Assembly (NCBI RefSeq): GCF_044647545.1
Contig: NZ_CP172818.1
DNA length: 64,000 nucleotides
Reading direction: 5' to 3' (one strand)
Origin: Escherichia coli
GTDB lineage: Bacteria > Pseudomonadota > Gammaproteobacteria > Enterobacterales > Enterobacteriaceae
The position numbers and the translations under genes were made by a program. This document shows positions 3,219-54,470 of the stretch, in pieces; position 1 is the first letter of the stretch, and the number at the start of each line of letters is the position of its first letter. Below the pieces are notes generated by a model. That model saw only the letters and a list, made by a program, of their open reading frames with translations. It made no database searches and had not been told where the DNA came from.

Positions 3219-4058
3219 TTAGCGCCCCCGAATACCATCAGCCAGACGTTTGCCGTTACGCACCGACAGCAGCGTCAGCAAAGTGCGCCAGGTCATGCGT
3301 TTATTGCGGATCTGGTAGAGGGTAAACAGCTGATATTTTTTGCTGGCGCGGTCGAATTTGTCTTTGTGCTTACGGTAAAAGTGGAAGTATCCGGAGAATT
3401 TTTTCGGTGACGAGGTGATCTGCATTTCGCCGTGATTGATATGCAGGATCTGCGTCGCCTCTTCCACTTTCCACGGTTCGCCATACTCCACCACCATCCG
3501 CAGGAAGATGTCGTAATCCTGTGCCGCTTTCAGTTCGGTATCAAACAAACACTCTTTGAAACGCCACGCCCAGGTAAAGACCTGATTGCCAATGATATTG
3601 CGTTTGTAGAACAGGCGGCGTGAATACGGCGATTTGGGATACAGCGGTAGGCTTGCCGGTTGGGAATAGACTTCGCCCTGGCAAACGTAGTCGTTAGCGT
3701 ACAAAAAGGCGTGAGTGACCAGTTGCTGTTTATGGGCGAGGAAGACGCTCAGGCGGTTGGGTGTCCATTCATCATCATCATCGATCCCGGTGATGTATTC
3801 CCCTTGCGCCAGCATAATCGCCTGGTTACGTACCGCGCACGCCCCGCTGTTAATGTCGTTGTGAATGTAAGTGATACGCGGATCGTTGAGGGCGGTGACG
3901 TACTGTTGTAGTTGTTCCCAGGAGGTGGAGCAATCATCCACGATGATCATCTCCCAGTTACTGTAGTCCTGGCGCAGGACCGATTTTATCGCCCGAATAG
4001 CCAGTTGTTGGCGGTTCCAGGTCGGCATATAGATTGAAATCAGCGGATTGTCTTTCAT
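3219..4058 (-). CDS. wcaA: Colanic acid biosynthesis glycosyltransferase WcaA (GT2)
   Basis: 279-aa ORF, N-terminal GT2 signature (ISIYMPTWNRQQLAIRAIKSVLRQDYSNWEMIIVDDCS). Confidence 0.9.
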   Translation of the reverse strand: MKDNPLISIYMPTWNRQQLAIRAIKSVLRQDYSNWEMIIVDDCSTSWEQLQQYVTALNDPRITYIHNDINSGACAVRNQAIMLAQGEYITGIDDDDEWTPNRLSVFLAHKQQLVTHAFLYANDYVCQGEVYSQPASLPLYPKSPYSRRLFYKRNIIGNQVFTWAWRFKECLFDTELKAAQDYDIFLRMVVEYGEPWKVEEATQILHINHGEMQITSSPKKFSGYFHFYRKHKDKFDRASKKYQLFTLYQIRNKRMTWRTLLTLLSVRNGKRLADGIRGR

Positions 4059-4092: not shown

Positions 4093-4129
4093 GCCGGATG
4101 CGGCGTGAACGCCTTATTATCCGGCCTAC
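4093..4129. repeat. REP (repetitive extragenic palindrome) element between wcaA and wzc
   Basis: gccggatgcggcgtgaacgccttattatccggcctac matches the canonical E. coli REP consensus. Confidence 0.65.
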
Positions 4130-4153: not shown

Positions 4154-6316
4154 TTATTTCGCATCCGACTTATATTCGTATTCGTAATAGCCATAATCCT
4201 GATACGCGCTGGCGCGGCGGAAGATGGAGTTCAGAATCACCCCTTTCACCGGAATACCGTTTTGCTCAAAGCGGCTCAGACTGGTTTCCACTTCTTTCAA
4301 TGTGTTGACCGCATAACGCGCCACCATTAATGTGGTTCCGACATGACGACCAACAATTGCCGCATCGGTCACTGCCAGAATCGGCGGCGTATCAATCAAC
4401 ACCAGGTCGTAGTTTTTACTCGCCCACTTCACCAGTTCGGCAAAGCGTTCGCTCATTAACAGTTCAGAAGGATTTGGCGGCACCTGACCGCGCGGGATCA
4501 GGTCAAATTTGGCAATAGAGGTCGGTTTAGCAGCGGTAGTAATATCGCCCTGTCCAATCAGAATTTCCGACAGGCCATTAACGTTATTAGTGCCCAACAG
4601 CTCGTGGGTGTAGCCTTTGCGCATATCGCAGTCGATCAACAACACCCGTTTATTGGTCTGGCTAATCACCGCCGCCAGGTTGGCGCAGACAAAGGTTTTA
4701 CCGATTGACGGGCTAACCCCGGTCATCATCAACACATTCTTCTGCGCCTGCATCATCGCGAAGTGCAGACTGGTACGCAGACTGCGGATGGCTTCAATCG
4801 CCAGATCGGTTGGATTCCCCACCGCCAGTAGCTGGCTCTGTTTATAGCGTTTAATCCCTTTGATGGTTTTGACGCTATCGCGCGCTTTCTGCCATTCCGA
4901 CAACGGGATGCTGGCATAGACACTGATACCGTGTTCTTCCAGCACCTGCGGGCTTTCGATGCCGCGATTAAACAACGAGCGCAGCAGCACACCCACGATA
5001 GAGAGCATCAGGCCAAGGATAATCGCGCCGAGGATAATCAGCCCTTTCTTCGGTTTTAGCACGCCAGGCTGGGTGATTGCCGGGTCAACAATGCGCACAT
5101 CGCCGACGGTGCTGGCTTCGGTGATTTTCAGCTCCTGCTCTTTATTCAGCAGTTGCATATAGACCTGTTGACCAGACTCGACATCGCGGGTCAGACGGAC
5201 AATTTCCTGCTGGGTTTTCGGCATCGCCGTTACGCGACCGTTAAGTTTGGCTTTTTCGTCTTCCAGCGCCTGCCGTTTCTCCAGCAGCGTGCGATACGCC
5301 GGGTGAACTTTGGTGTACAGCTTGGAGATTTCCGCTTCTTTAAAGGTCAGTTCGTTCAACTGCGCGTCGATGTTCACCATCGAATCGAGCACCGCTTTCG
5401 CTTCCAGCGGCAGATCAACTGAATCTTTATCCTGACGGAAGGTATTCAGTTTGTTTTCGGCAACATCAAGGCGGTTACGTACTTCCGGTAACTGTTGCGC
5501 GAGGAAAGCGAGGCTTTTCGACGCTTCCGCCGATTTGCGCTCAATATTTTGTTCCTGATAGTTACGAGCGATGCTGTTAAGAATGTCGCGGATCTGTTCG
5601 CGATCTTCACCGGTATAAGTCAGGCTCAGTACACCTGCGTCTTTGCCGTTCTCCGTTACCGTCAGGCTGTTTTGCAGTTGATTGATCATCCCCAGCGTGG
5701 AGTATTTGGTGACGGTAAACTCACTGCCCGGGCTGGCGTGAATGGCTTCAACCATCAGCGTGACGCCTTCTTTTTTCAGCATCTGGCCCGCTTGCCCACG
5801 GGCGCTAAAGCCGCCATCGCTGATCAGGGTGTAGTTTTTGTTGTCCAGCACATTAAGCGTAAACACCTGATCCGCCATCTCTTTCGGGCGGTTAAAGGTG
5901 GTCACTTTTACCGTCTCGTTCTGGCGTCCCATCAGGCGATCCCAGCCCGCACCGAAAATCGGGAACGTGTTTTTGCTCACTGCAATATCGAGGTCGAGAT
6001 CGTCCACCGTTTTACCAAGCACCAGACGCGAACGAATCAACTGGATCTCGGCGTCCGATGCAGGCGGTTTGTTGGCTAATGCCGATCCGATATCCTGCAC
6101 TAACGAATTGCCGCTGCTTTGCTCGATTTGTACCAGTGCGTCGGCGCTATAAATCGGCGTGGCAAAGAAGGTGTAAACCACGGCACAGAGGGCGAATACG
6201 GCGGTGATGCCAATCACCCACCAGCGCGCTTCAATGACGGTGCCGACCAGGCGACCAATATCGATTTCATCACTGCCCGTTACCGGAGCGGCATGTTGTT
6301 TTACTTTTTCTGTCAT
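4154..6316 (-). CDS. wzc: Tyrosine autokinase Wzc (polysaccharide co-polymerase)
   Basis: ORF 4154..6352; internal Met (MTEKVKQHAAPVTGSDEIDIG...) gives 720 aa; Walker A (GVSPSIGKT), C-terminal Tyr-rich tail (YQDYGYYEYEYKSDAK); ATG confirmed at 6314-6316. Confidence 0.9.
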   Translation of the reverse strand: MTEKVKQHAAPVTGSDEIDIGRLVGTVIEARWWVIGITAVFALCAVVYTFFATPIYSADALVQIEQSSGNSLVQDIGSALANKPPASDAEIQLIRSRLVLGKTVDDLDLDIAVSKNTFPIFGAGWDRLMGRQNETVKVTTFNRPKEMADQVFTLNVLDNKNYTLISDGGFSARGQAGQMLKKEGVTLMVEAIHASPGSEFTVTKYSTLGMINQLQNSLTVTENGKDAGVLSLTYTGEDREQIRDILNSIARNYQEQNIERKSAEASKSLAFLAQQLPEVRNRLDVAENKLNTFRQDKDSVDLPLEAKAVLDSMVNIDAQLNELTFKEAEISKLYTKVHPAYRTLLEKRQALEDEKAKLNGRVTAMPKTQQEIVRLTRDVESGQQVYMQLLNKEQELKITEASTVGDVRIVDPAITQPGVLKPKKGLIILGAIILGLMLSIVGVLLRSLFNRGIESPQVLEEHGISVYASIPLSEWQKARDSVKTIKGIKRYKQSQLLAVGNPTDLAIEAIRSLRTSLHFAMMQAQKNVLMMTGVSPSIGKTFVCANLAAVISQTNKRVLLIDCDMRKGYTHELLGTNNVNGLSEILIGQGDITTAAKPTSIAKFDLIPRGQVPPNPSELLMSERFAELVKWASKNYDLVLIDTPPILAVTDAAIVGRHVGTTLMVARYAVNTLKEVETSLSRFEQNGIPVKGVILNSIFRRASAYQDYGYYEYEYKSDAK

Positions 6317-6318
6317 TC

Positions 6319-6762
6319 TTATACCTGCTCTGCGTTCAATGCCTGCGCCCACTGGCGGGCAGACCGTTCAAGTAATGTGTACACCGCTGCAAACGTTTCC
6401 CGGCTTTTGCGATACGGATCGGGGATTTCACATTCGTTATCCCAGTGACCAAACAGCATCACTTTGCCGCGCATCTCAGGTGCCATCTCGCATAAGCGTT
6501 CGATATGGCGCTTTTCCATGGTCAAAATCAGGTCGTAGTTGCGACACAGGCGACGGCTGATTTGACGGGCACAGTGACCTTCCAGAGACAGTTGATGTTC
6601 TGCGGCGACGCTGATAGCAGTAGGGTCAGCGCCCTTACCGACCAGCGCGCCGAGTCCAGCGGACTCCACTTTCAGCTCCGGGTGATAACGTTGCAGTAAG
6701 CGTTCCGCCGTCGGGGAGCGGCAAATATTGCCGACACAGACAACTAAGATGTTGTTAAACAT
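6319..6762 (-). CDS. wzb: Low-molecular-weight phosphotyrosine phosphatase Wzb
   Basis: 147-aa ORF with CxGNxCRS P-loop (VCVGNICRSP). Confidence 0.9.
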   Translation of the reverse strand: MFNNILVVCVGNICRSPTAERLLQRYHPELKVESAGLGALVGKGADPTAISVAAEHQLSLEGHCARQISRRLCRNYDLILTMEKRHIERLCEMAPEMRGKVMLFGHWDNECEIPDPYRKSRETFAAVYTLLERSARQWAQALNAEQV

Positions 6763-6767
6763 GACAA

Positions 6768-7907
6768 TTACCAGTTATGAATGTCGCTGGCTGTATCCGT
6801 CATGTAACGGACACCGCTAATAGTTGGCAGCAACTGATTGATCAGACGGTTCCAGCGGGAAACCGGGGCGGTGGTGACATACACCACGTCATAAGGTTGC
6901 AGGCGGAATTCTGTCGCCATCACCAGCGACGTGGCATCGGACATATCCAGCTGGTAGATATTGGCAATCTTGCCGTTACGCCCGCCCTCGCCTTTCAGCG
7001 GACGAATGACAAAGATGCCGCTGGCGTTGGAGGTGGTCATGTCGATGCCTTCAGCATTGCCCAGGGCTTCAGTCAGGGTCATGCCGCTAAAGTCCATTTT
7101 CAGGGTGCTCTGTTTCTTCACTTCACCCATCACAAACACTTTCAGATCATCATTACGTGGCACGTAAAGAATATCGCCGGGGTAAAGCAGTCGGTTCTGA
7201 TTGAGGTCGCCGTTTTGCATCAGCGCCTGCAAAGAAATGCGTTCTTCACGACCATTGTGTGTTAGCACTACGTTGCGCCAGTCAGCGGTGTCGGTCAGGC
7301 CACCTGCGGCGTTGATGGCGTCGAGAATGGTCAGTGGCACGTTGGTAATCGCCTGTTGACCGGATTTATTCACCTGACCGGAGATATAGGCTTTTTGCGA
7401 GCGGAAGGCGGCGATATTAACGTCCACCTGCGGGTCAGCGATGTACGTCGCTAAGCGCCCGGTAATATCACTGCGGATTTCAGCGAGCGTTTTCCCCACG
7501 ACGTGAACCTTGCCGATATACGGGTAGAACATGGTGCCGTCAGGCTGTACCCAGTTGCCGGTGTCGCTGGAGCTGCGGTACTGACCGGCTGGCGTGGTGA
7601 GTTCCGGGTGATCCCAGACGGTGACATTAAGAACGTCTCCCGGCCCGACGCGATACTGATAATTCGCGATCTCACTTTCCAGCGTCATATTGGGGCGCGC
7701 TACATTCGGGCGTGGGCGTAATTGATCAATCAGGCGCGGGGTCAACGGATAAACATTCACCATTTTGTCGAGATCGAAATCAGCGTCCTGCTGTTTGATG
7801 ACGTCTTTCCCCATCGTCGACATATTGCTGCCCGGAAGTACTGTGCAACCGCTTATCAAGGTTACTGACACCAATAATGGCATCAATTTCATTTTGGATT
7901 TCATCAT
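6768..7907 (-). CDS. wza: Outer-membrane polysaccharide export lipoprotein Wza
   Basis: 379-aa ORF, lipoprotein signal with lipobox (LISGC), Wza/OPX family sequence. Confidence 0.9.
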
Positions 7908-8085
7908 TGTTTATTTATCACTTTGGCAGAGTAATTATCCTGTGCACTATTAATAGCAATGTCGCCATGCACATTTACCTTGCAGTTAATTGAATAAAAA
8001 TTTAACTGGCATCAGTCCTAAAAAAATTGATTTCATCCGCAGGCTATTGACAGAATAATTCAGACTGGTCTTTCAGGCATCCAGA

Positions 8086-8097
8086 CACGCTACCGCC
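8086..8097 (-). promoter_or_regulatory. ops element (RfaH recruitment site) within the JUMPstart sequence of the wza leader
   Basis: + strand cacgctaccgcc is the reverse complement of ops GGCGGTAGCGTG; lies about 180 nt upstream of the wza start codon on the transcribed strand. Confidence 0.75.
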
Positions 8098-8345
8098 CCT
8101 GGCTTTTTAGCTACCAATACACTGATTTAGCTTAATTTTTAAAACCCTCTCAACATACAGTCGTTGATGAGAAAGGGTTATTGCGGAAATTAACTTCCGA
8201 ATATAAGGTGACATTATGGTAATTGAATATTGGCTCTCCAATAATGCAGGAGGAAGTGTTACAGCTAACGGAATAGCAGGCAAGGTAACAATTCGGCAAT
8301 TGGCTATTTTTAAGAATTATATTAAGTGTCATTCAATATGGTTTT

Positions 8346-8359
8346 TAGGAGTTTCTTTA
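8346..8359 (-). promoter_or_regulatory. Candidate RcsAB box of the cps (wza) promoter (weak match)
   Basis: taggagtttcttta partly resembles the reverse complement of the RcsAB box consensus TaAGaatatTCctA; position is plausible but the match is poor. Confidence 0.25.
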
Positions 8360-8565
8360 GGTTGACAATATTTAATATAGTGTCTCCATATGAGATATTT
8401 CTTAAATAACGCTTTATTATTACCGCTTATAATTCGGGGATAATGTGAGGTTATAAACCTCAAATAATATGAGATAAATAGTGCTGCAACATTGCATTTT
8501 TGCCCCGATTTATCCATGATCGAATTGTGACATTTGTCATACAACGAATAGGTTTTGTACTTACT

Positions 8566-10149
8566 ATGGAATGGATTGCCGATCCGTCTATCTGGGCTGG
8601 ATTAATCACGCTGATTGTGATCGAACTGGTCCTCGGCATTGATAACCTGGTCTTTATTGCCATCCTCGCCGAAAAACTACCGCCGAAGCAGCGCGACCGC
8701 GCACGGGTTACCGGGCTGCTGCTGGCGATGTTAATGCGCCTGTTACTGCTGGCGTCAATCTCCTGGCTGGTCACCCTGACTCAACCGCTGTTCAGCTTCC
8801 GCTCGTTTACCTTTAGCGCCCGCGACTTAATCATGCTGTTTGGTGGTTTCTTCCTGCTGTTCAAAGCCACGATGGAGCTGAACGAACGGCTGGAAGGGAA
8901 AGACAGCAATAACCCCACGCAACGCAAAGGTGCGAAGTTCTGGGGGGTGGTGACACAAATTGTGGTACTGGACGCCATCTTCTCACTCGACTCGGTGATT
9001 ACCGCCGTCGGGATGGTCGACCATTTACTGGTCATGATGGCCGCCGTCGTTATCGCTATCAGCCTGATGTTGATGGCCAGCAAGCCGTTAACGCAATTTG
9101 TTAACAGTCACCCGACGATCGTTATTCTCTGCTTAAGCTTCCTGTTGATGATTGGCTTTAGCCTGGTGGCAGAAGGTTTCGGCTTCGTCATTCCGAAAGG
9201 CTACCTGTACGCTGCTATTGGTTTCTCGGTGATGATCGAGGCGCTCAATCAGTTGGCTATCTTTAACCGGCGACGTTTTCTTTCCGCTAACCAGACGCTG
9301 CGCCAGCGAACTACCGAAGCGGTAATGCGCCTGTTAAGCGGGCAAAAAGAAGATGCGGAACTGGATGCCGAAACCGCGTCTATGCTGGTGGATCATGATA
9401 ATCAGCAAATCTTTAATCCGCAGGAACGGCGGATGATTGAGCGGGTACTTAATCTTAACCAGCGTACCGTCAGCAGCATTATGACGTCGCGCCACGATAT
9501 TGAGCATATCGATCTCAACGCACCGGAAGAAGAAATCCGCCAGTTGCTGGAGCGAAATCAGCACACGCGACTGGTGGTTACTGATGGCGATGACGCGGAA
9601 GATTTGCTCGGTGTTGTTCACGTTATCGACCTGTTACAACAGTCACTGCGCGGCGAACCGCTCAACCTGCGGGTGTTGATTCGCCAGCCGCTGGTGTTCC
9701 CGGAAACCTTGCCGTTGTTACCTGCCCTGGAGCAGTTCCGTAATGCCCGCACACACTTTGCTTTTGTAGTGGATGAGTTTGGCTCGGTGGAAGGGATTGT
9801 GACATTAAGTGACGTCACAGAAACCATTGCCGGTAACTTACCGAATGAAGTGGAAGAGATCGACGCCCGCCATGATATTCAGAAGAATGCCGACGGTTCC
9901 TGGACGGCGAATGGTCATATGCCGCTGGAAGATCTGGTGCAATATGTGCCGCTGCCGCTGGATGAAAAACGTGAATATCACACCATTGCCGGGCTATTGA
10001 TGGAATATTTGCAGCGTATTCCAAAACCTGGCGAAGAAGTTCAGGTGGGGGATTATTTGCTTAAAACGTTGCAGGTGGAAAGCCATCGCGTGCAGAAGGT
10101 GCAAATTATTCCGCTACGTAAGGATGGCGAGATGGAGTACGAGGTGTGA
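8566..10149 (+). CDS. yegH: Inner membrane protein YegH (TerC-like membrane domain with CBS and CorC/HlyC domains)
   Basis: ORF 8500..10149; start taken at [16 protein letters not shown] (ATG 8566), 527 aa; N-terminal transmembrane segments, C-terminal CBS pair. Confidence 0.85.
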
Positions 10150-23430: not shown

Positions 23431-23611
23431 AAGAAATCCTTTCTTAGAGAATTATTGAGGTCCGGTATCATACCGATTGCAATAATGAAATAAGAGCAAA
23501 CGAAGAAACTTTCAGAATTAGGCCCGGCGGCGCAGAAAATTTTGCTATTCGCCTCGCAAGAACGGAGAGCCGTCGATTGACACTAAGGGCGGAGTGACAT
23601 AATTTCAGGAG

Positions 23612-23755
23612 TGAGGGTTAGGGAGAGGTTTCCCCCCTCCCCCTGGTGTTCTTAGTAAGCCTGGAAGCTAATCACTAAGAGTATCACCAGTATGATGACG
23701 TGCTTCATCATAACCCTTTCCTTATTAAAAGCCCTCTTCTCCGGGAGAGGGTTTC
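23612..23755 (+). ncRNA. sibA: SibA antisense sRNA (type I antitoxin of ibsA)
   Basis: Strong promoter ttgaca-N17-taattt at 23577-23605; transcript fully antisense to ibsA; terminator hairpin ccctcttctccgggagaggg + ttt at 23732-23754; ~144 nt. Confidence 0.6.
23652..23711 (-). CDS. ibsA: Type I toxin IbsA (19-aa hydrophobic peptide)
   Basis: Minus-strand ORF atgatgaagcacgtcatcatactggtgatactcttagtgattagcttccaggcttactaa = MMKHVIILVILLVISFQAY. Confidence 0.7.
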   Translation of the reverse strand: MMKHVIILVILLVISFQAY

Positions 23756-23947
23756 CCGTTTCAGCGTCCCGCTGAAATCGTCGGCTTACCTCCTTTCGCC
23801 CTGAATGCAGTCTATCGCTAACGCGTGAACAAAATAGTTTCCCCTGTGATTATTGCGTAACGTCTCGCAAAGAATATTTGCTCGCAGGATCGCAGACTAC
23901 AAAGCCTGCGGATTGACAATCTGATTGTGAAGGCATACTTTCAGGAG

Positions 23948-24083
23948 TGAGGGTAGAGCGGGGTTTCCCCCGCCCTGGTAGTCTTAGTATGCTGGCCAGC
24001 TAATCACTAAGAGCACCACGATGATGATCCACTTCATCATGACCCTTTCCTTATTTAAGGCCCCTTCCTCGGGAGGGGCTTTC
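23948..24083 (+). ncRNA. sibB: SibB antisense sRNA (type I antitoxin of ibsB)
   Basis: Promoter ttgaca-N17-tacttt at 23913-23941; antisense to ibsB; terminator hairpin ccccttcctcgggagggg at 24061-24078; ~136 nt. Confidence 0.6.
23984..24040 (-). CDS. ibsB: Type I toxin IbsB (18-aa hydrophobic peptide)
   Basis: Minus-strand ORF translating to MMKWIIIVVLLVISWPAY, paralogous to ibsA. Confidence 0.65.
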   Translation of the reverse strand: MMKWIIIVVLLVISWPAY

Positions 24084-31766: not shown

Positions 31767-33182
31767 ATGACAGATCTTCCCGACAGCACCCGCTGGCAAT
31801 TGTGGATTGTGGCTTTCGGCTTCTTTATGCAGTCACTGGACACCACCATCGTTAACACCGCGCTTCCCTCAATGGCGCAAAGCCTCGGGGAAAGCCCGCT
31901 GAATATGCACATGGTCATTGTCTCTTATGTACTGACCGTGGCGGTGATGCTGCCCGCCAGCGGCTGGCTGGCGGACAAAGTCGGCGTACGCAATATCTTC
32001 TTTACCGCCATCGTGCTGTTTACCCTCGGTTCGCTGTTTTGCGCACTTTCCGCCACGTTAAACGAACTGTTGCTTGCTCGCGCGTTACAGGGCGTTGGCG
32101 GCGCGATGATGGTGCCGGTCGGCAGGTTAACAGTGATGAAAATTGTTCCGCGTGAGCAATATATGGCGGCGATGACCTTTGTTACGCTGCCCGGTCAGGT
32201 CGGCCCACTATTGGGTCCGGCGCTCGGCGGCCTGCTGGTGGAATACGCGTCCTGGCACTGGATCTTTTTGATCAACATACCGGTAGGGATTATCGGTGCG
32301 ATTGCCACGCTGATGTTAATGCCAAACTACACCATGCAGACGCGGCGTTTCGATCTCTCCGGTTTTTTGTTGCTGGCGGTCGGCATGGCGGTATTAACGC
32401 TGGCGCTGGATGGCAGTAAAGGCACGGGACTTTCACCGCTGGCGATTGCCGGACTGGCAGCGATTGGCGTGGTGGCACTGGTGCTTTATCTGCTGCACGC
32501 CAGAAATAACAACCGCGCCCTGTTCAGCCTGAAACTGTTCCGCACCCGTACCTTTTCGCTGGGCCTGGCGGGGAGCTTTGCCGGACGTATCGGCAGTGGC
32601 ATGTTGCCCTTTATGACACCGGTTTTCTTACAGATTGGCCTCGGTTTCTCGCCGTTCCATGCCGGACTGATGATGATCCCGATGGTGCTCGGCAGCATGG
32701 GAATGAAGCGAATTGTAGTGCAGGTGGTGAATCGCTTTGGCTACCGTCGGGTACTGGTGGCGACCACGCTGGGCCTGTCGCTGGTCACCCTGCTGTTTAT
32801 GACTACCGCGCTGCTGGGCTGGTACTATGTTTTGCCGTTCGTCCTGTTTTTACAAGGGATGGTCAACTCGACGCGTTTCTCCTCCATGAACACCCTGACG
32901 CTGAAAGATCTCCCGGACAATCTGGCGAGCAGCGGCAACAGCCTGCTATCGATGATTATGCAATTGTCGATGAGTATCGGCGTCACTATCGCCGGGCTGT
33001 TGCTGGGACTTTTTGGTTCACAGCATGTCAGCGTCGACAGCGGCACCACACAAACCGTCTTTATGTACACCTGGCTTAGCATGGCGTTTATCATCGCCCT
33101 TCCGGCGTTCATCTTTGCCAGAGTGTCGAACGATACGCATCAAAATGTCGCTATTTCGCGGCGAAAAAGGAGCGCGCAATGA
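31767..33182 (+). CDS. mdtD: MFS transporter MdtD
   Basis: 471-aa ORF, 14-TMS-type MFS sequence; starts 1 bp after the mdtC stop. Confidence 0.9.
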
Positions 33183-34582
33183 AGTTCTGGCGACCCGGTA
33201 TTACCGGCAAACTGTTTCTGGCGATTTTCGCCACCTGCATTGTCTTGCTGATCAGTATGCACTGGGCGGTGCGTATCAGTTTTGAGCGTGGCTTTATTGA
33301 TTACATCAAGCATGGTAATGAACAACGGCTGCAAATGCTCGGCGATGCGCTTGGTGAGCAGTACGCCCAGCACGGGAACTGGCGCTTCCTGCGTAATAAC
33401 GATCGCTTTGTATTTCAGATCCTACGTTCGCTGGAGCATGATAACAACGAAGATAAGCCCGGCCCCGGTATGCCGCCACACGGCTGGCGCACGCAATTCT
33501 GGGTGGTTGATCAAAACAACAAAGTGCTGGTTGGCCCGCGAGCACCGATTCCACCAGACGGCACACGGCGGCCCATTATGGTCAATGGGGCGGAAGTGGG
33601 TGCGGTGATCGCCTCCCCTGTTGAACGACTGACCCGCAATACCGATATCAATTTTGACAGACAACAGAGGCAAACCAGTTGGCTGATTGTCGCTTTATCT
33701 ACCTTGTTAGCGGCGCTGGCGACATTCCCACTGGCGCGCGGTTTGCTGGCTCCGGTCAAACGACTGGTGGACGGTACACACAAACTGGCAGCGGGCGATT
33801 TCACTACTCGCGTGACGCCCACCAGTGAAGATGAATTGGGCAAACTGGCGCAAGACTTCAACCAGCTCGCCAGCACCCTGGAGAAAAACCAACAGATGCG
33901 CCGCGATTTTATGGCCGATATCTCCCACGAGCTGCGCACGCCTTTAGCGGTACTGCGCGGCGAACTGGAAGCTATTCAGGATGGCGTGCGTAAATTCACG
34001 CCGGAGACGGTGGCGTCTTTACAGGCGGAAGTCGGTACACTGACCAAACTGGTTGACGATCTCCATCAGTTGTCGATGTCTGATGAAGGCGCTCTCGCCT
34101 ATCAAAAAGCACCGGTAGATTTGATCCCACTGCTGGAAGTGGCGGGCGGCGCATTTCGCGAACGATTCGCCAGCCGTGGCCTGAAACTGCAATTTTCCCT
34201 GCCAGACAGTATTACCGTATTTGGCGATCGCGACCGTTTAATGCAGTTATTCAATAACTTACTGGAAAACAGCCTGCGCTACACTGACAGCGGCGGTAGC
34301 CTGAAAATCTCTGCCGAGCAGCACGACAAAACGGTGCGCCTGACCTTTGCCGACAGCGCGCCGGGCGTCAGTGACGATCAGCTACAAAAATTGTTTGAAC
34401 GTTTTTATCGCACCGAAGGCTCCCGCAACCGAGCCAGCGGCGGTTCCGGGCTGGGGCTGGCGATTTGCCTGAACATTGTTGAAGCACATAATGGTCGCAT
34501 TATTGCTGCCCATTCGCCTTTTGGCGGGGTAAGCATTACAGTAGAGTTACCGCTGGAACGGGATTTACAGAGAGAAGTATGA
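33179..34582 (+). CDS. baeS: Envelope-stress sensor histidine kinase BaeS
   Basis: 467-aa ORF; HAMP region, H-box ([21 protein letters not shown]), HATPase_c G-boxes; 4-bp overlap with mdtD. Confidence 0.9.
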
Positions 34583-38015: not shown

Positions 38016-38099
38016 TTAATTTCGATTATTTTTCCCGGATGGAAAATTCTTAGAAACCGATCACATACAGCTGCATTTATTAAGGTTATCATCCGTTTC

Positions 38100-38190
38100 G
38101 CTGAAAAACATAACCCATAAAATGCTAGCTGTACCAGGAACCACCTCCTTAGCCTGTGTAATCTCCCTTACACACACGGGCTTATTTTTT
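38100..38190 (+). ncRNA. cyaR: CyaR (RyeE) Hfq-dependent sRNA
   Basis: gctgaaaaacataacccataaaatgctagctgtaccaggaaccacctccttagcctgtgtaatctccc...gggcttatttttt matches CyaR as I recall it, including the terminator hairpin and U-tail. Confidence 0.8.
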
Positions 38191-54334: not shown

Positions 54335-54470
54335 CCTGCCATAACGTGAAGAAGCAATGACCTGGTGGTCCGTGACTTCCCTACGCTGGCATTATCCAGA
54401 TCAGGTGATACGGGTATTTCTCAGCCTTCACGCAGAAGGGCACCCCGAGTCGTTTGGTTGCGATAATAAA
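54335..54470 (-). promoter_or_regulatory. TPP (thi-box) riboswitch in the thiM leader
   Basis: + strand 54374-54446 is the reverse complement of GGGGTGCCCTTCTGCGTGAAGGCTGAGAAATACCCGTATCACCTGATCTGGATAATGCCAGCGTAGGGAAGTC, the thiM aptamer with its CUGAGA element. Confidence 0.8.

Follow-up and report, generated by a model that had tools for sequence, protein, structure and literature searches.

Which signals ahead of wza, the first gene of the colanic-acid operon, start transcription, and which carry RNA polymerase through to the distal genes? In Escherichia coli and related bacteria, colanic acid forms the general slime of stress and biofilms, and it is an engineering target as a product. The operon behind it, of roughly 20 genes, is expressed only under both of two controls, Rcs-dependent initiation and RfaH-dependent processivity. 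We addressed the question in a window of E. coli DNA, meaning the whole stretch of 64,000 nucleotides that was analysed. The gap between wza and the divergent gene yegH is very probably the colanic-acid (cps/wca) regulatory region, in which Rcs-dependent initiation is followed by RfaH-dependent elongation. An ops/JUMPstart element and an Rcs-activated promoter before wza are already known, and our analysis adds no new biology to them; the correct recovery of this textbook arrangement from raw sequence serves as a positive control. Modest additions are the cross-genus footprint of the whole control region, an ambiguity between two RcsAB boxes and natural variants that lack JUMPstart.

Conserved blocks and an ops element between wza and yegH

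The region and its neighbours, as given by the open reading frames and annotation, are as follows.

7908–8565, no strand assigned: divergent wza/yegH intergenic region, 658 bp, AT-rich
6768–7907, minus strand: wza, a 379-aa open reading frame
8566–10149, plus strand: yegH (TerC family), transcribed divergently from wza

Downstream of wza, in the same orientation, come wzb, wzc, wcaA, wcaB, wcaC, wcaD and wcaE, and the series continues past the start of the window. A preliminary description of this DNA had pictured a long AT-rich non-coding region before wza. This proved correct: the gap spans exactly 7908–8565, has the same length in K-12 MG1655, and lies in a stretch (7800–8599) with a GC content of 0.275–0.40 in 200-nt windows, compared with 0.50–0.60 in the flanking genes. 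The closest genomes carry a 49-aa PGAP ‘hypothetical protein’ at 8216–8365 on the plus strand. We consider it spurious, as it runs antisense over the wza promoter and boxes, starts in non-conserved sequence and is missing from the K-12 annotation.

At thresholds of at least 90% identity and at least 80% coverage, the gap was present in 4818 of 5426 complete E. coli genomes. Matches at 99% identity or more amounted to 73 records, and among the matches listed at least 12 complete genomes, from clinical and animal isolates, share a 100% identical allele. The window and K-12 differ by 18 substitutions across the 658 positions, none of which falls in ops/JUMPstart, the promoter, the blocks of box 1 or box 2, or the leader downstream of ops.

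To look beyond the species, we took 80 loci that code for close relatives of Wza from contigs representing one genome per species; 79 of these loci had enough upstream DNA. The genera sampled include Escherichia, Salmonella, Citrobacter, Enterobacter, Lelliottia, Kosakonia, Phytobacter, Franconibacter, Atlantibacter, Trabulsiella, Cedecea and Buttiauxella. As a neutral baseline served 150 four-fold-degenerate sites of wza from the same loci, with a mean identity to the window of 0.51. Read in the direction of wza, the gap resolves into seven blocks.

8372–8343, minus strand: block (i), TTGTCAAnnTAAAGAAACTCCTAAAA, identity 0.77; contains candidate box 1 (8359–8346)
8325–8307, minus strand: block (ii), identity 0.87; its plus strand reads TAAGAATTATATTA at 8311–8324
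8283–8250, minus strand: block (iii), identity 0.79; reads as a weak sigma-70 promoter
8245–8125, minus strand: block (iv), spacer from promoter to JUMPstart, poorly conserved (identity 0.33)
8124–8086, minus strand: block (v), JUMPstart (identity 0.86) and ops (identity 0.95)
8052–8035 and 8030–8001, minus strand: block (vi), conserved leader blocks ATTATTCTGTCAATAGCC and TTTTTTTAGGACTGATGCCAGTTAAATTT, identity 0.78–0.79
7945–7908, minus strand: block (vii), near-invariant start-codon block GGATAATTACTCTGCCAAAGTGATAAATAAACA, identity 0.93; runs directly into the wza ATG

Further upstream, 8480–8380 is variable (identity 0.42), and 8545–8490 is conserved again (0.71), facing yegH. The stretch from about 8490 to 8565 is the conserved upstream region of yegH itself, outside wza control. 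Control of wza is limited to about 7908–8372, and the remainder of the gap faces yegH.

Block (v) contains ops and JUMPstart.

8086–8097, minus strand: ops, GGCGGTAGCGTG, exact, on the non-template (sense) strand of wza, with its first base 190 nt upstream of the ATG
8086–8124, minus strand: JUMPstart (CAGTGTATTGGTAGCTAAAAAGCCAGGGGCGGTAGCGTG), 39 nt, with a 5-bp hairpin and with ops as its 3′ end

The exact reverse-complement ops 12-mer that the preliminary description had placed at 8086–8097 is indeed there. Oriented like wza, it agrees fully with the 12-nt consensus GGCGGTAGnnTG and is the sole exact copy in the window; a single copy with one mismatch was found at 34292–34303 (plus strand), within a 467-aa open reading frame. 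The chance expectation in 2 × 64 kb is about 0.008 for an exact 12-mer, and rises to a mean of 0.32 with one mismatch permitted. The same description had proposed a scan with a JUMPstart model, which returned a full match to Rfam RF01707 containing ops (57.3 bits against a gathering score of 35; E = 6e-12; model positions 1–38 of 38), the only JUMPstart in the 64-kb window. The element heads a long same-strand operon for surface components, reaching from wza, wzb and wzc to wcaA–wcaE. An Rfam match to mir-320 (18.7 bits against a gathering score of 55.5) is noise.

The ops core GGCGGTAG lies between −186 and −199 from the wza ATG in 74 of the 79 loci (−190 in the window). Locus L045 (C. amalonaticus) carries it at −308, with an insertion of about 118 nt, and in L005 the core has a single mismatch (GGACGGTAG) within a JUMPstart that still scores 41.8 bits. 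In three loci no JUMPstart lies within 4 kb in either direction, and both the promoter block and the start-codon block are kept: L035, L036 and L039, which come from an uncultured Enterobacteriaceae bacterium, ‘Escherichia sp. ESNIH1’ and Pseudescherichia vulneris. Since the element is missing in these three related species, ops is not indispensable in every lineage.

A conserved, predicted promoter and two RcsAB-like boxes

Upstream of JUMPstart, blocks (i) to (iii) hold the candidate signals for initiation.

8346–8359, minus strand: RcsAB-box candidate 1, TAAAGAAACTCCTA, at about −105 from the predicted start
8311–8324, plus strand: RcsAB-like box 2, inverted, at about −70 from the predicted start
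8255–8283, minus strand: predicted core promoter with −35 TTGCCT (8283–8278), a 17-nt spacer and an extended −10, TGT + AACACT (8263–8255)
8245–8249 (about 8247; K-12 about 2137583), minus strand: predicted transcription start, placed from the −10 position only

The promoter block reads CTTGCCTG..TTAGCTG(C/T)AACA(A/C)TTC across genera, with a mean identity of 0.79 compared with the neutral 0.51. Most other genera have TGC + AACAAT as the extended −10, as opposed to TGT + AACACT in the window. Judged from its motifs and conservation, 8283–8255 is probably the weak sigma-70 promoter of wza. Its hexamers match at 7 of 12 positions, in addition to the extended −10, and it falls below the threshold of a simple promoter scan. 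The sole match of that scan, TGGAGA-16-CATAAT at 8240–8213, is not favoured, being non-conserved and having a K-12 substitution (8236) in its −35.

From the position of the −10, transcription is expected to begin near 8247. Given such a start, the leader would be about 340 nt long and ops would occupy roughly +151 to +162. The preliminary description had pointed out that a start downstream of 8086 would leave ops outside the transcript. The sole conserved promoter-like block lies about 160 nt upstream of ops, which argues for a start ahead of the element, with the reservation that this start is a predicted one. Published work describes a single promoter upstream of wza, with −10 and −35 sites and an RcsAB box (PMC2478693). 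In CFT073, the wza promoter region is covered by H-NS, and deleting both hns and stpA brings out a sigma-70 peak upstream of the gene; the transcription start of wza is listed as ‘NA’ in Dataset S2 of the same study (Hustmyer 2022; PMC9765446).

Binding of RcsA–RcsB at the wza promoter, and the loss of activation when the site is mutated, were reported by Wehland & Bernhard 2000, as cited in PMC9976346 and PMC2478693. The RcsAB consensus is given as TaAGaatatTCcta, with the right half taken as the RcsB half-site (PMC4325325). Known operators (wza, rcsA, K. pneumoniae galF, E. amylovora amsG, S. Typhi tviA and flhDC) are asymmetric, A/T-rich sites of 14 bp that include an RcsB half of the TCCTA type and lie ahead of an exopolysaccharide operon. 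The window departs from this pattern in that both of its candidates reach only 10 of 14 positions and that two conserved boxes stand in opposite orientation, 35 bp apart from centre to centre.

Box 1 agrees with the consensus TaAGaatatTCcta at 4 of the 5 capital positions and has an exact right half, TCCTA; within its block, TCCTAAAA is near-invariant. Box 2 likewise agrees at 4 of 5 capital positions and has an exact left half, TAAGAAT. In loci that read TAAGAATAATATTA, as in most genera, box 2 rises to 11 of 14. A consensus scan of the 64-kb window with TaAGaatatTCctA, allowing up to 3 mismatches, found 4 sites compared with 3.75 expected, none of them in the wza/yegH gap. The preliminary description had expected an RcsAB box upstream, had suggested such a scan, and had called 8346–8359 a weak candidate. 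The candidate scores 10/14, and conserved blocks (0.77 and 0.87 compared with 0.51) do lie upstream of the promoter, as expected; the motif match is at chance level. Support for box 1 comes from cross-genus conservation and from its place upstream of the promoter, not from the motif score.

Box 1 is probably the operator; the two boxes acting jointly is a distinctly less likely arrangement, and box 2 on its own is improbable. The main alternative, which we regard as possible yet doubtful, is that the functional operator is not box 1 alone and that the inverted box at 8311–8324 serves instead or as well, forming a bipartite operator. Composite RcsA half-sites are reported elsewhere, in the ‘RcsAAB’ box of Yersinia hmsC (PMC4325325). 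The exact TAAGAAT half, the 11/14 match in most genera and the better-conserved block (0.87 compared with 0.77) speak for a part played by box 2. Against this, box 1 possesses the exact RcsB half-site TCCTA, and its position at about −105 would fit the RcsAB box of wza, which we take to lie about 100 bp upstream of the start; as a motif, neither box stands above chance. We favour box 1, although the second conserved box makes the exact operator ambiguous.

The leader between ops and wza

Downstream of ops the leader is more conserved than expected of neutral sequence, with identities of 0.72–0.93 compared with 0.51. The start-codon block is the extreme case: 76% of its positions have an identity of at least 0.9 across the 79 loci. 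No canonical Shine-Dalgarno sequence is recognisable in this block (7945–7908) before the wza ATG.

RNA folding of the 265-nt region from JUMPstart to wza with RNAalifold gave −8.4 kcal/mol, with 0 compensatory pairs and without recovering the JUMPstart stem, and a single-sequence fold of the whole leader was no better than shuffles (z = −1.5). A terminator-like hairpin followed by UUUU, from 8179 to about 8141, upstream of JUMPstart, had an energy of −14.9 kcal/mol (z = −2.6). It was rejected as an attenuator because it lies in the least conserved stretch (0.33) and because its U-run is broken in K-12, where five substitutions fall within the hairpin or directly 3′ of it and two of them hit the run.

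In about 25 genera, conservation of the blocks downstream of ops greatly exceeds the neutral rate, without a conserved RNA structure.

A further-reaching reading, to which we give little weight, holds that the leader does more than bridge the distance from ops to wza, that the block at 7945–7908 and the U-rich/AGGA block at 8030–8001 form a control element acting after RfaH recruitment, and, separately, that the RcsAB operator is bipartite. The leader blocks could serve as a protein- or sRNA-binding site, as a ribosome standby site in conjunction with RfaH–S10 coupling, or as an internal promoter.

The last of these roles leads to a different account of the operon, in which a second promoter within 8052–7908 drives RfaH-independent expression of wza, wzb and wzc, and ops has a role only in those transcripts that begin at the distal promoter. 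A GATAAT hexamer at 7940–7935 and leader conservation unaccompanied by RNA structure would suit such a promoter, and RegulonDB is said, in a figure legend of PMC9764084, to list an additional predicted sigma-E promoter for the wza unit. Neither a scan nor inspection by eye found an acceptable −35/−10 pair in 8052–7908, however; TTGCTA is set at a spacer of only 14 nt, and the literature cited above places a single promoter upstream of wza. We hold a second promoter to be quite unlikely, and keep to transcription of the whole leader, ops included, from the predicted promoter at 8283–8255.

RfaH recruitment at ops and comparison with known systems

In RfaH systems generally, RNA polymerase pauses at ops, where the non-template strand presents the element to RfaH. 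RfaH takes the place of NusG on the polymerase and refolds in its C-terminal domain. A polymerase modified in this way withstands pausing and Rho-dependent termination. The domain, once refolded, binds ribosomal protein S10, and this probably makes up for weak ribosome-binding sites.

Applied to the window, this suggests the following course of events. H-NS would bind and silence the AT-rich DNA until RcsA–RcsB, at one or more upstream operators, activates the weak sigma-70 promoter at 8283–8255. The operator would be the conserved block with the 14-mer at 8346–8359, possibly together with the inverted box at 8311–8324. With about 150 nt of the leader (about 340 nt in all) behind it, RNA polymerase would transcribe JUMPstart and pause, and ops, displayed on the non-template strand, would recruit RfaH. 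RfaH would displace NusG, stay with the polymerase and suppress pausing, Rho-dependent termination, polarity and H-NS roadblocks. Its refolded KOW domain may couple a ribosome, through S10, to the start region of an mRNA whose first gene is without a good Shine-Dalgarno sequence. Processivity and ribosome coupling would together allow the distal genes of the roughly 20-gene operon to be expressed.

Of these steps, H-NS silencing of the AT-rich promoter region, activation by RcsAB and the loading of RfaH at ops are established for the wza locus by published work. In CFT073, the wza ops GGCGGTAGCGTG is listed at −190, in the ‘UTR’ and with RfaH signal ‘Y’ (Hustmyer 2022, Dataset S2; PMC9765446), and it belongs to a set of 8 ops sites in non-template leader regions that show an RfaH ChIP-seq signal. 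The signal at wza is gone in an rfaH deletion strain and is seen only in the hns stpA double deletion, the operon being silent in rich medium; copies of ops that lie inside genes elsewhere fail to recruit RfaH (PMC9765446). According to the same study, the RfaH-modified complex resists H-NS filaments (PMC9765446). Transcription of wca is attributed to ‘a JUMPStart-RfaH antitermination mechanism’ and to activation by RcsA/RcsB in PMC9976346, which cites Stout 1996 and Hobbs & Reeves 1994. RfaH is required for the genes downstream of wzc, and JUMPstart–RfaH antitermination is described at cps together with RcsAB activation (PMC3673037). The RfaH-dependent antitermination of the cps/wca operon that the preliminary description had deduced from ops is supported by the full JUMPstart, by its narrow range of distances from wza (−186 to −199 in 74 of 79 loci) and by the ChIP data from CFT073. 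Because the 12-mer and the −190 distance in the window are identical to the Dataset S2 entry, we regard this as the rediscovery of a known element.

JUMPstart might instead act mainly as a structured RNA, whose hairpin binds a factor or alters the fate of the transcript, rather than through contact between DNA ops and RfaH. In Rfam it is treated as a cis-regulatory RNA containing a 5-bp stem, conservation extends to the JUMPstart bases 5′ of ops, and the stem is pairable in 99% of cells across 41 sequences. In the same 41 sequences, no pair carries a double change and the result does not rise above the shuffle control, so that covariation of the stem is uninformative either way; RNAalifold, as noted, recovers neither the stem nor a covarying structure in the leader. 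Work by Artsimovitch and Landick in 2002 and later structural studies reportedly show ops being read as non-template DNA, which counts against the RNA reading. We judge it very improbable, and prefer recruitment of RfaH by ops in the DNA.

That the ops match is a chance or relic sequence without function at wza, as the silence of the operon under standard conditions, the unrecruiting intragenic copies and the three species without the element might suggest, is effectively refuted by conservation and ChIP data, namely an exact 12-mer inside a full 39-nt JUMPstart of 57.3 bits, a fixed distance in 74 of 79 loci with an identity of 0.95 compared with the neutral 0.51, and an rfaH-dependent RfaH signal at the wza ops (PMC9765446).

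The JUMPstart/ops–RfaH system of E. coli colanic acid (cps/wca) has been described before at the same locus (Hobbs & Reeves 1994; Stout 1996; Navasa 2014; Hustmyer 2022). The window shares with it the 12-mer, the −190 distance and the neighbour yegH, and shows no difference of substance. Group 1 capsule (K30) and Klebsiella cps loci (galF-JUMPstart-wzi-wza) likewise have homologous wza-wzb-wzc genes behind JUMPstart, and their genes beyond wzc need RfaH. Their JUMPstart stands between galF and wzi and their expression is largely constitutive, whereas the leader in the window follows an RcsAB-dependent promoter next to yegH.

The other RfaH operons (waaQ (rfaQ), rfb/wzx O-antigen, hlyCABD, kps region 3 and F tra) also carry ops on the non-template strand, in an untranslated leader ahead of a long operon whose products are placed on the surface or secreted, and like wza they are bound by H-NS in CFT073 (PMC9765446). 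Unlike them, wza is cryptic in rich medium, and its initiation needs Rcs activation or removal of H-NS. The distance from ops to the first gene also varies, from 71 nt at wzx and 190 nt at wza to 634 nt at hlyC.

The upstream RcsAB-like boxes and their surroundings

The preliminary description had proposed a weak candidate RcsAB box at 8346-8359, upstream of wza. A second RcsAB-like 14-mer was found nearby in inverted orientation, together with a predicted gene that overlaps the region:
8311-8324, plus strand: second RcsAB-like 14-mer, TAAGAATTATATTA, with an exact left half
8216-8365, plus strand: hypothetical protein of 49 amino acids (WP_162829205.1), annotated by PGAP in the closest genomes

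The centres of the first candidate and the inverted box are 35 bp apart, and the block that holds the latter (8307-8325) is the most conserved upstream block, with an identity of 0.87 across genera. Because of this spacing and conservation, the two RcsAB-like boxes could possibly constitute a bipartite operator. The reading frame of WP_162829205.1 runs antisense over the wza promoter and the RcsAB blocks and carries no such annotation in K-12, and is probably a spurious call.

Directly upstream of JUMPstart, a hairpin followed by UUUU (8141-8179, minus strand) has a predicted energy of -14.9 kcal/mol (z = -2.6). This hairpin is strain-specific and lacks conservation between genera, its U-run is interrupted in K-12, and it is probably not functional.

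The post-ops leader and wza loci without ops

Two minus-strand blocks of the leader between ops and wza far exceed the neutral identity of 0.51 measured at four-fold-degenerate wza sites: 7908-7945, with an identity of 0.93, and 8001-8052, with an identity of about 0.79. An AGGA/GGA motif occurs in each of them (UUUUUUUAGGACUG and CACAGGAUAAU). No conserved RNA structure was detected in these two blocks, and a Shine-Dalgarno sequence is absent ahead of the wza ATG. In Citrobacter amalonaticus (locus L045), ops is located at -308, shifted by an insertion of ~118 nt in the post-ops leader.

In three species, an Enterobacteriaceae MAG (UBA7338), 'Escherichia sp. ESNIH1' and Pseudescherichia vulneris (loci L035, L036 and L039), JUMPstart/ops is absent from the leader and from everywhere within 4 kb, while the conserved block of the promoter is retained, as is the one adjoining the start codon. 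This arrangement is a natural variant of the operon without ops:
~3640-3973 (locus coordinates), ~330 nt upstream of wza: region without ops in loci L035, L036 and L039

The yegH side and the intergenic region across E. coli

A conserved palindrome precedes the divergent gene yegH:
8526-8541, plus strand: TGACATTTGTCA, ~25-40 nt before the start of yegH

The palindrome, for which a CRP-like TGTGA-N6-TCATA site (9/10 matches) is an alternative reading, is a possible operator for yegH.

Among 5426 complete E. coli genomes, the wza-yegH intergenic region had no megablast match in 595 and matched at only 60-80% identity in 6; these genomes may have had the region deleted or replaced by a group 1 capsule locus. 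In the otherwise identical strain FDAARGOS_497, an IS110-family transposase that is missing from the window lies downstream of yegH (5506-6531 of its locus, L001).

The wzc-wcaA gap and other elements

The 95-nt gap between wzc and wcaA holds a REP-like palindrome:
4093-4125, minus strand: GCCGGATAATAAGGCGTTCACGCCGCATCCGGC

It forms a hairpin without a U-tract, and its position coincides with the point where read-through reportedly depends on RfaH in clusters of the group 1 and colanic acid types.

Elsewhere in the window, a one-mismatch copy of ops is intragenic and was taken as a chance match, and the remaining elements are Rfam matches at gathering level:
34292-34303, plus strand: one-mismatch ops copy, GGCGGTAGCCTG, in a 467-aa ORF (33179-34582)
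23577-23726 and 23913-24055: two Sib antitoxin RNAs in tandem
38098-38187: CyaR/RyeE sRNA
54361-54457, minus strand: TPP riboswitch
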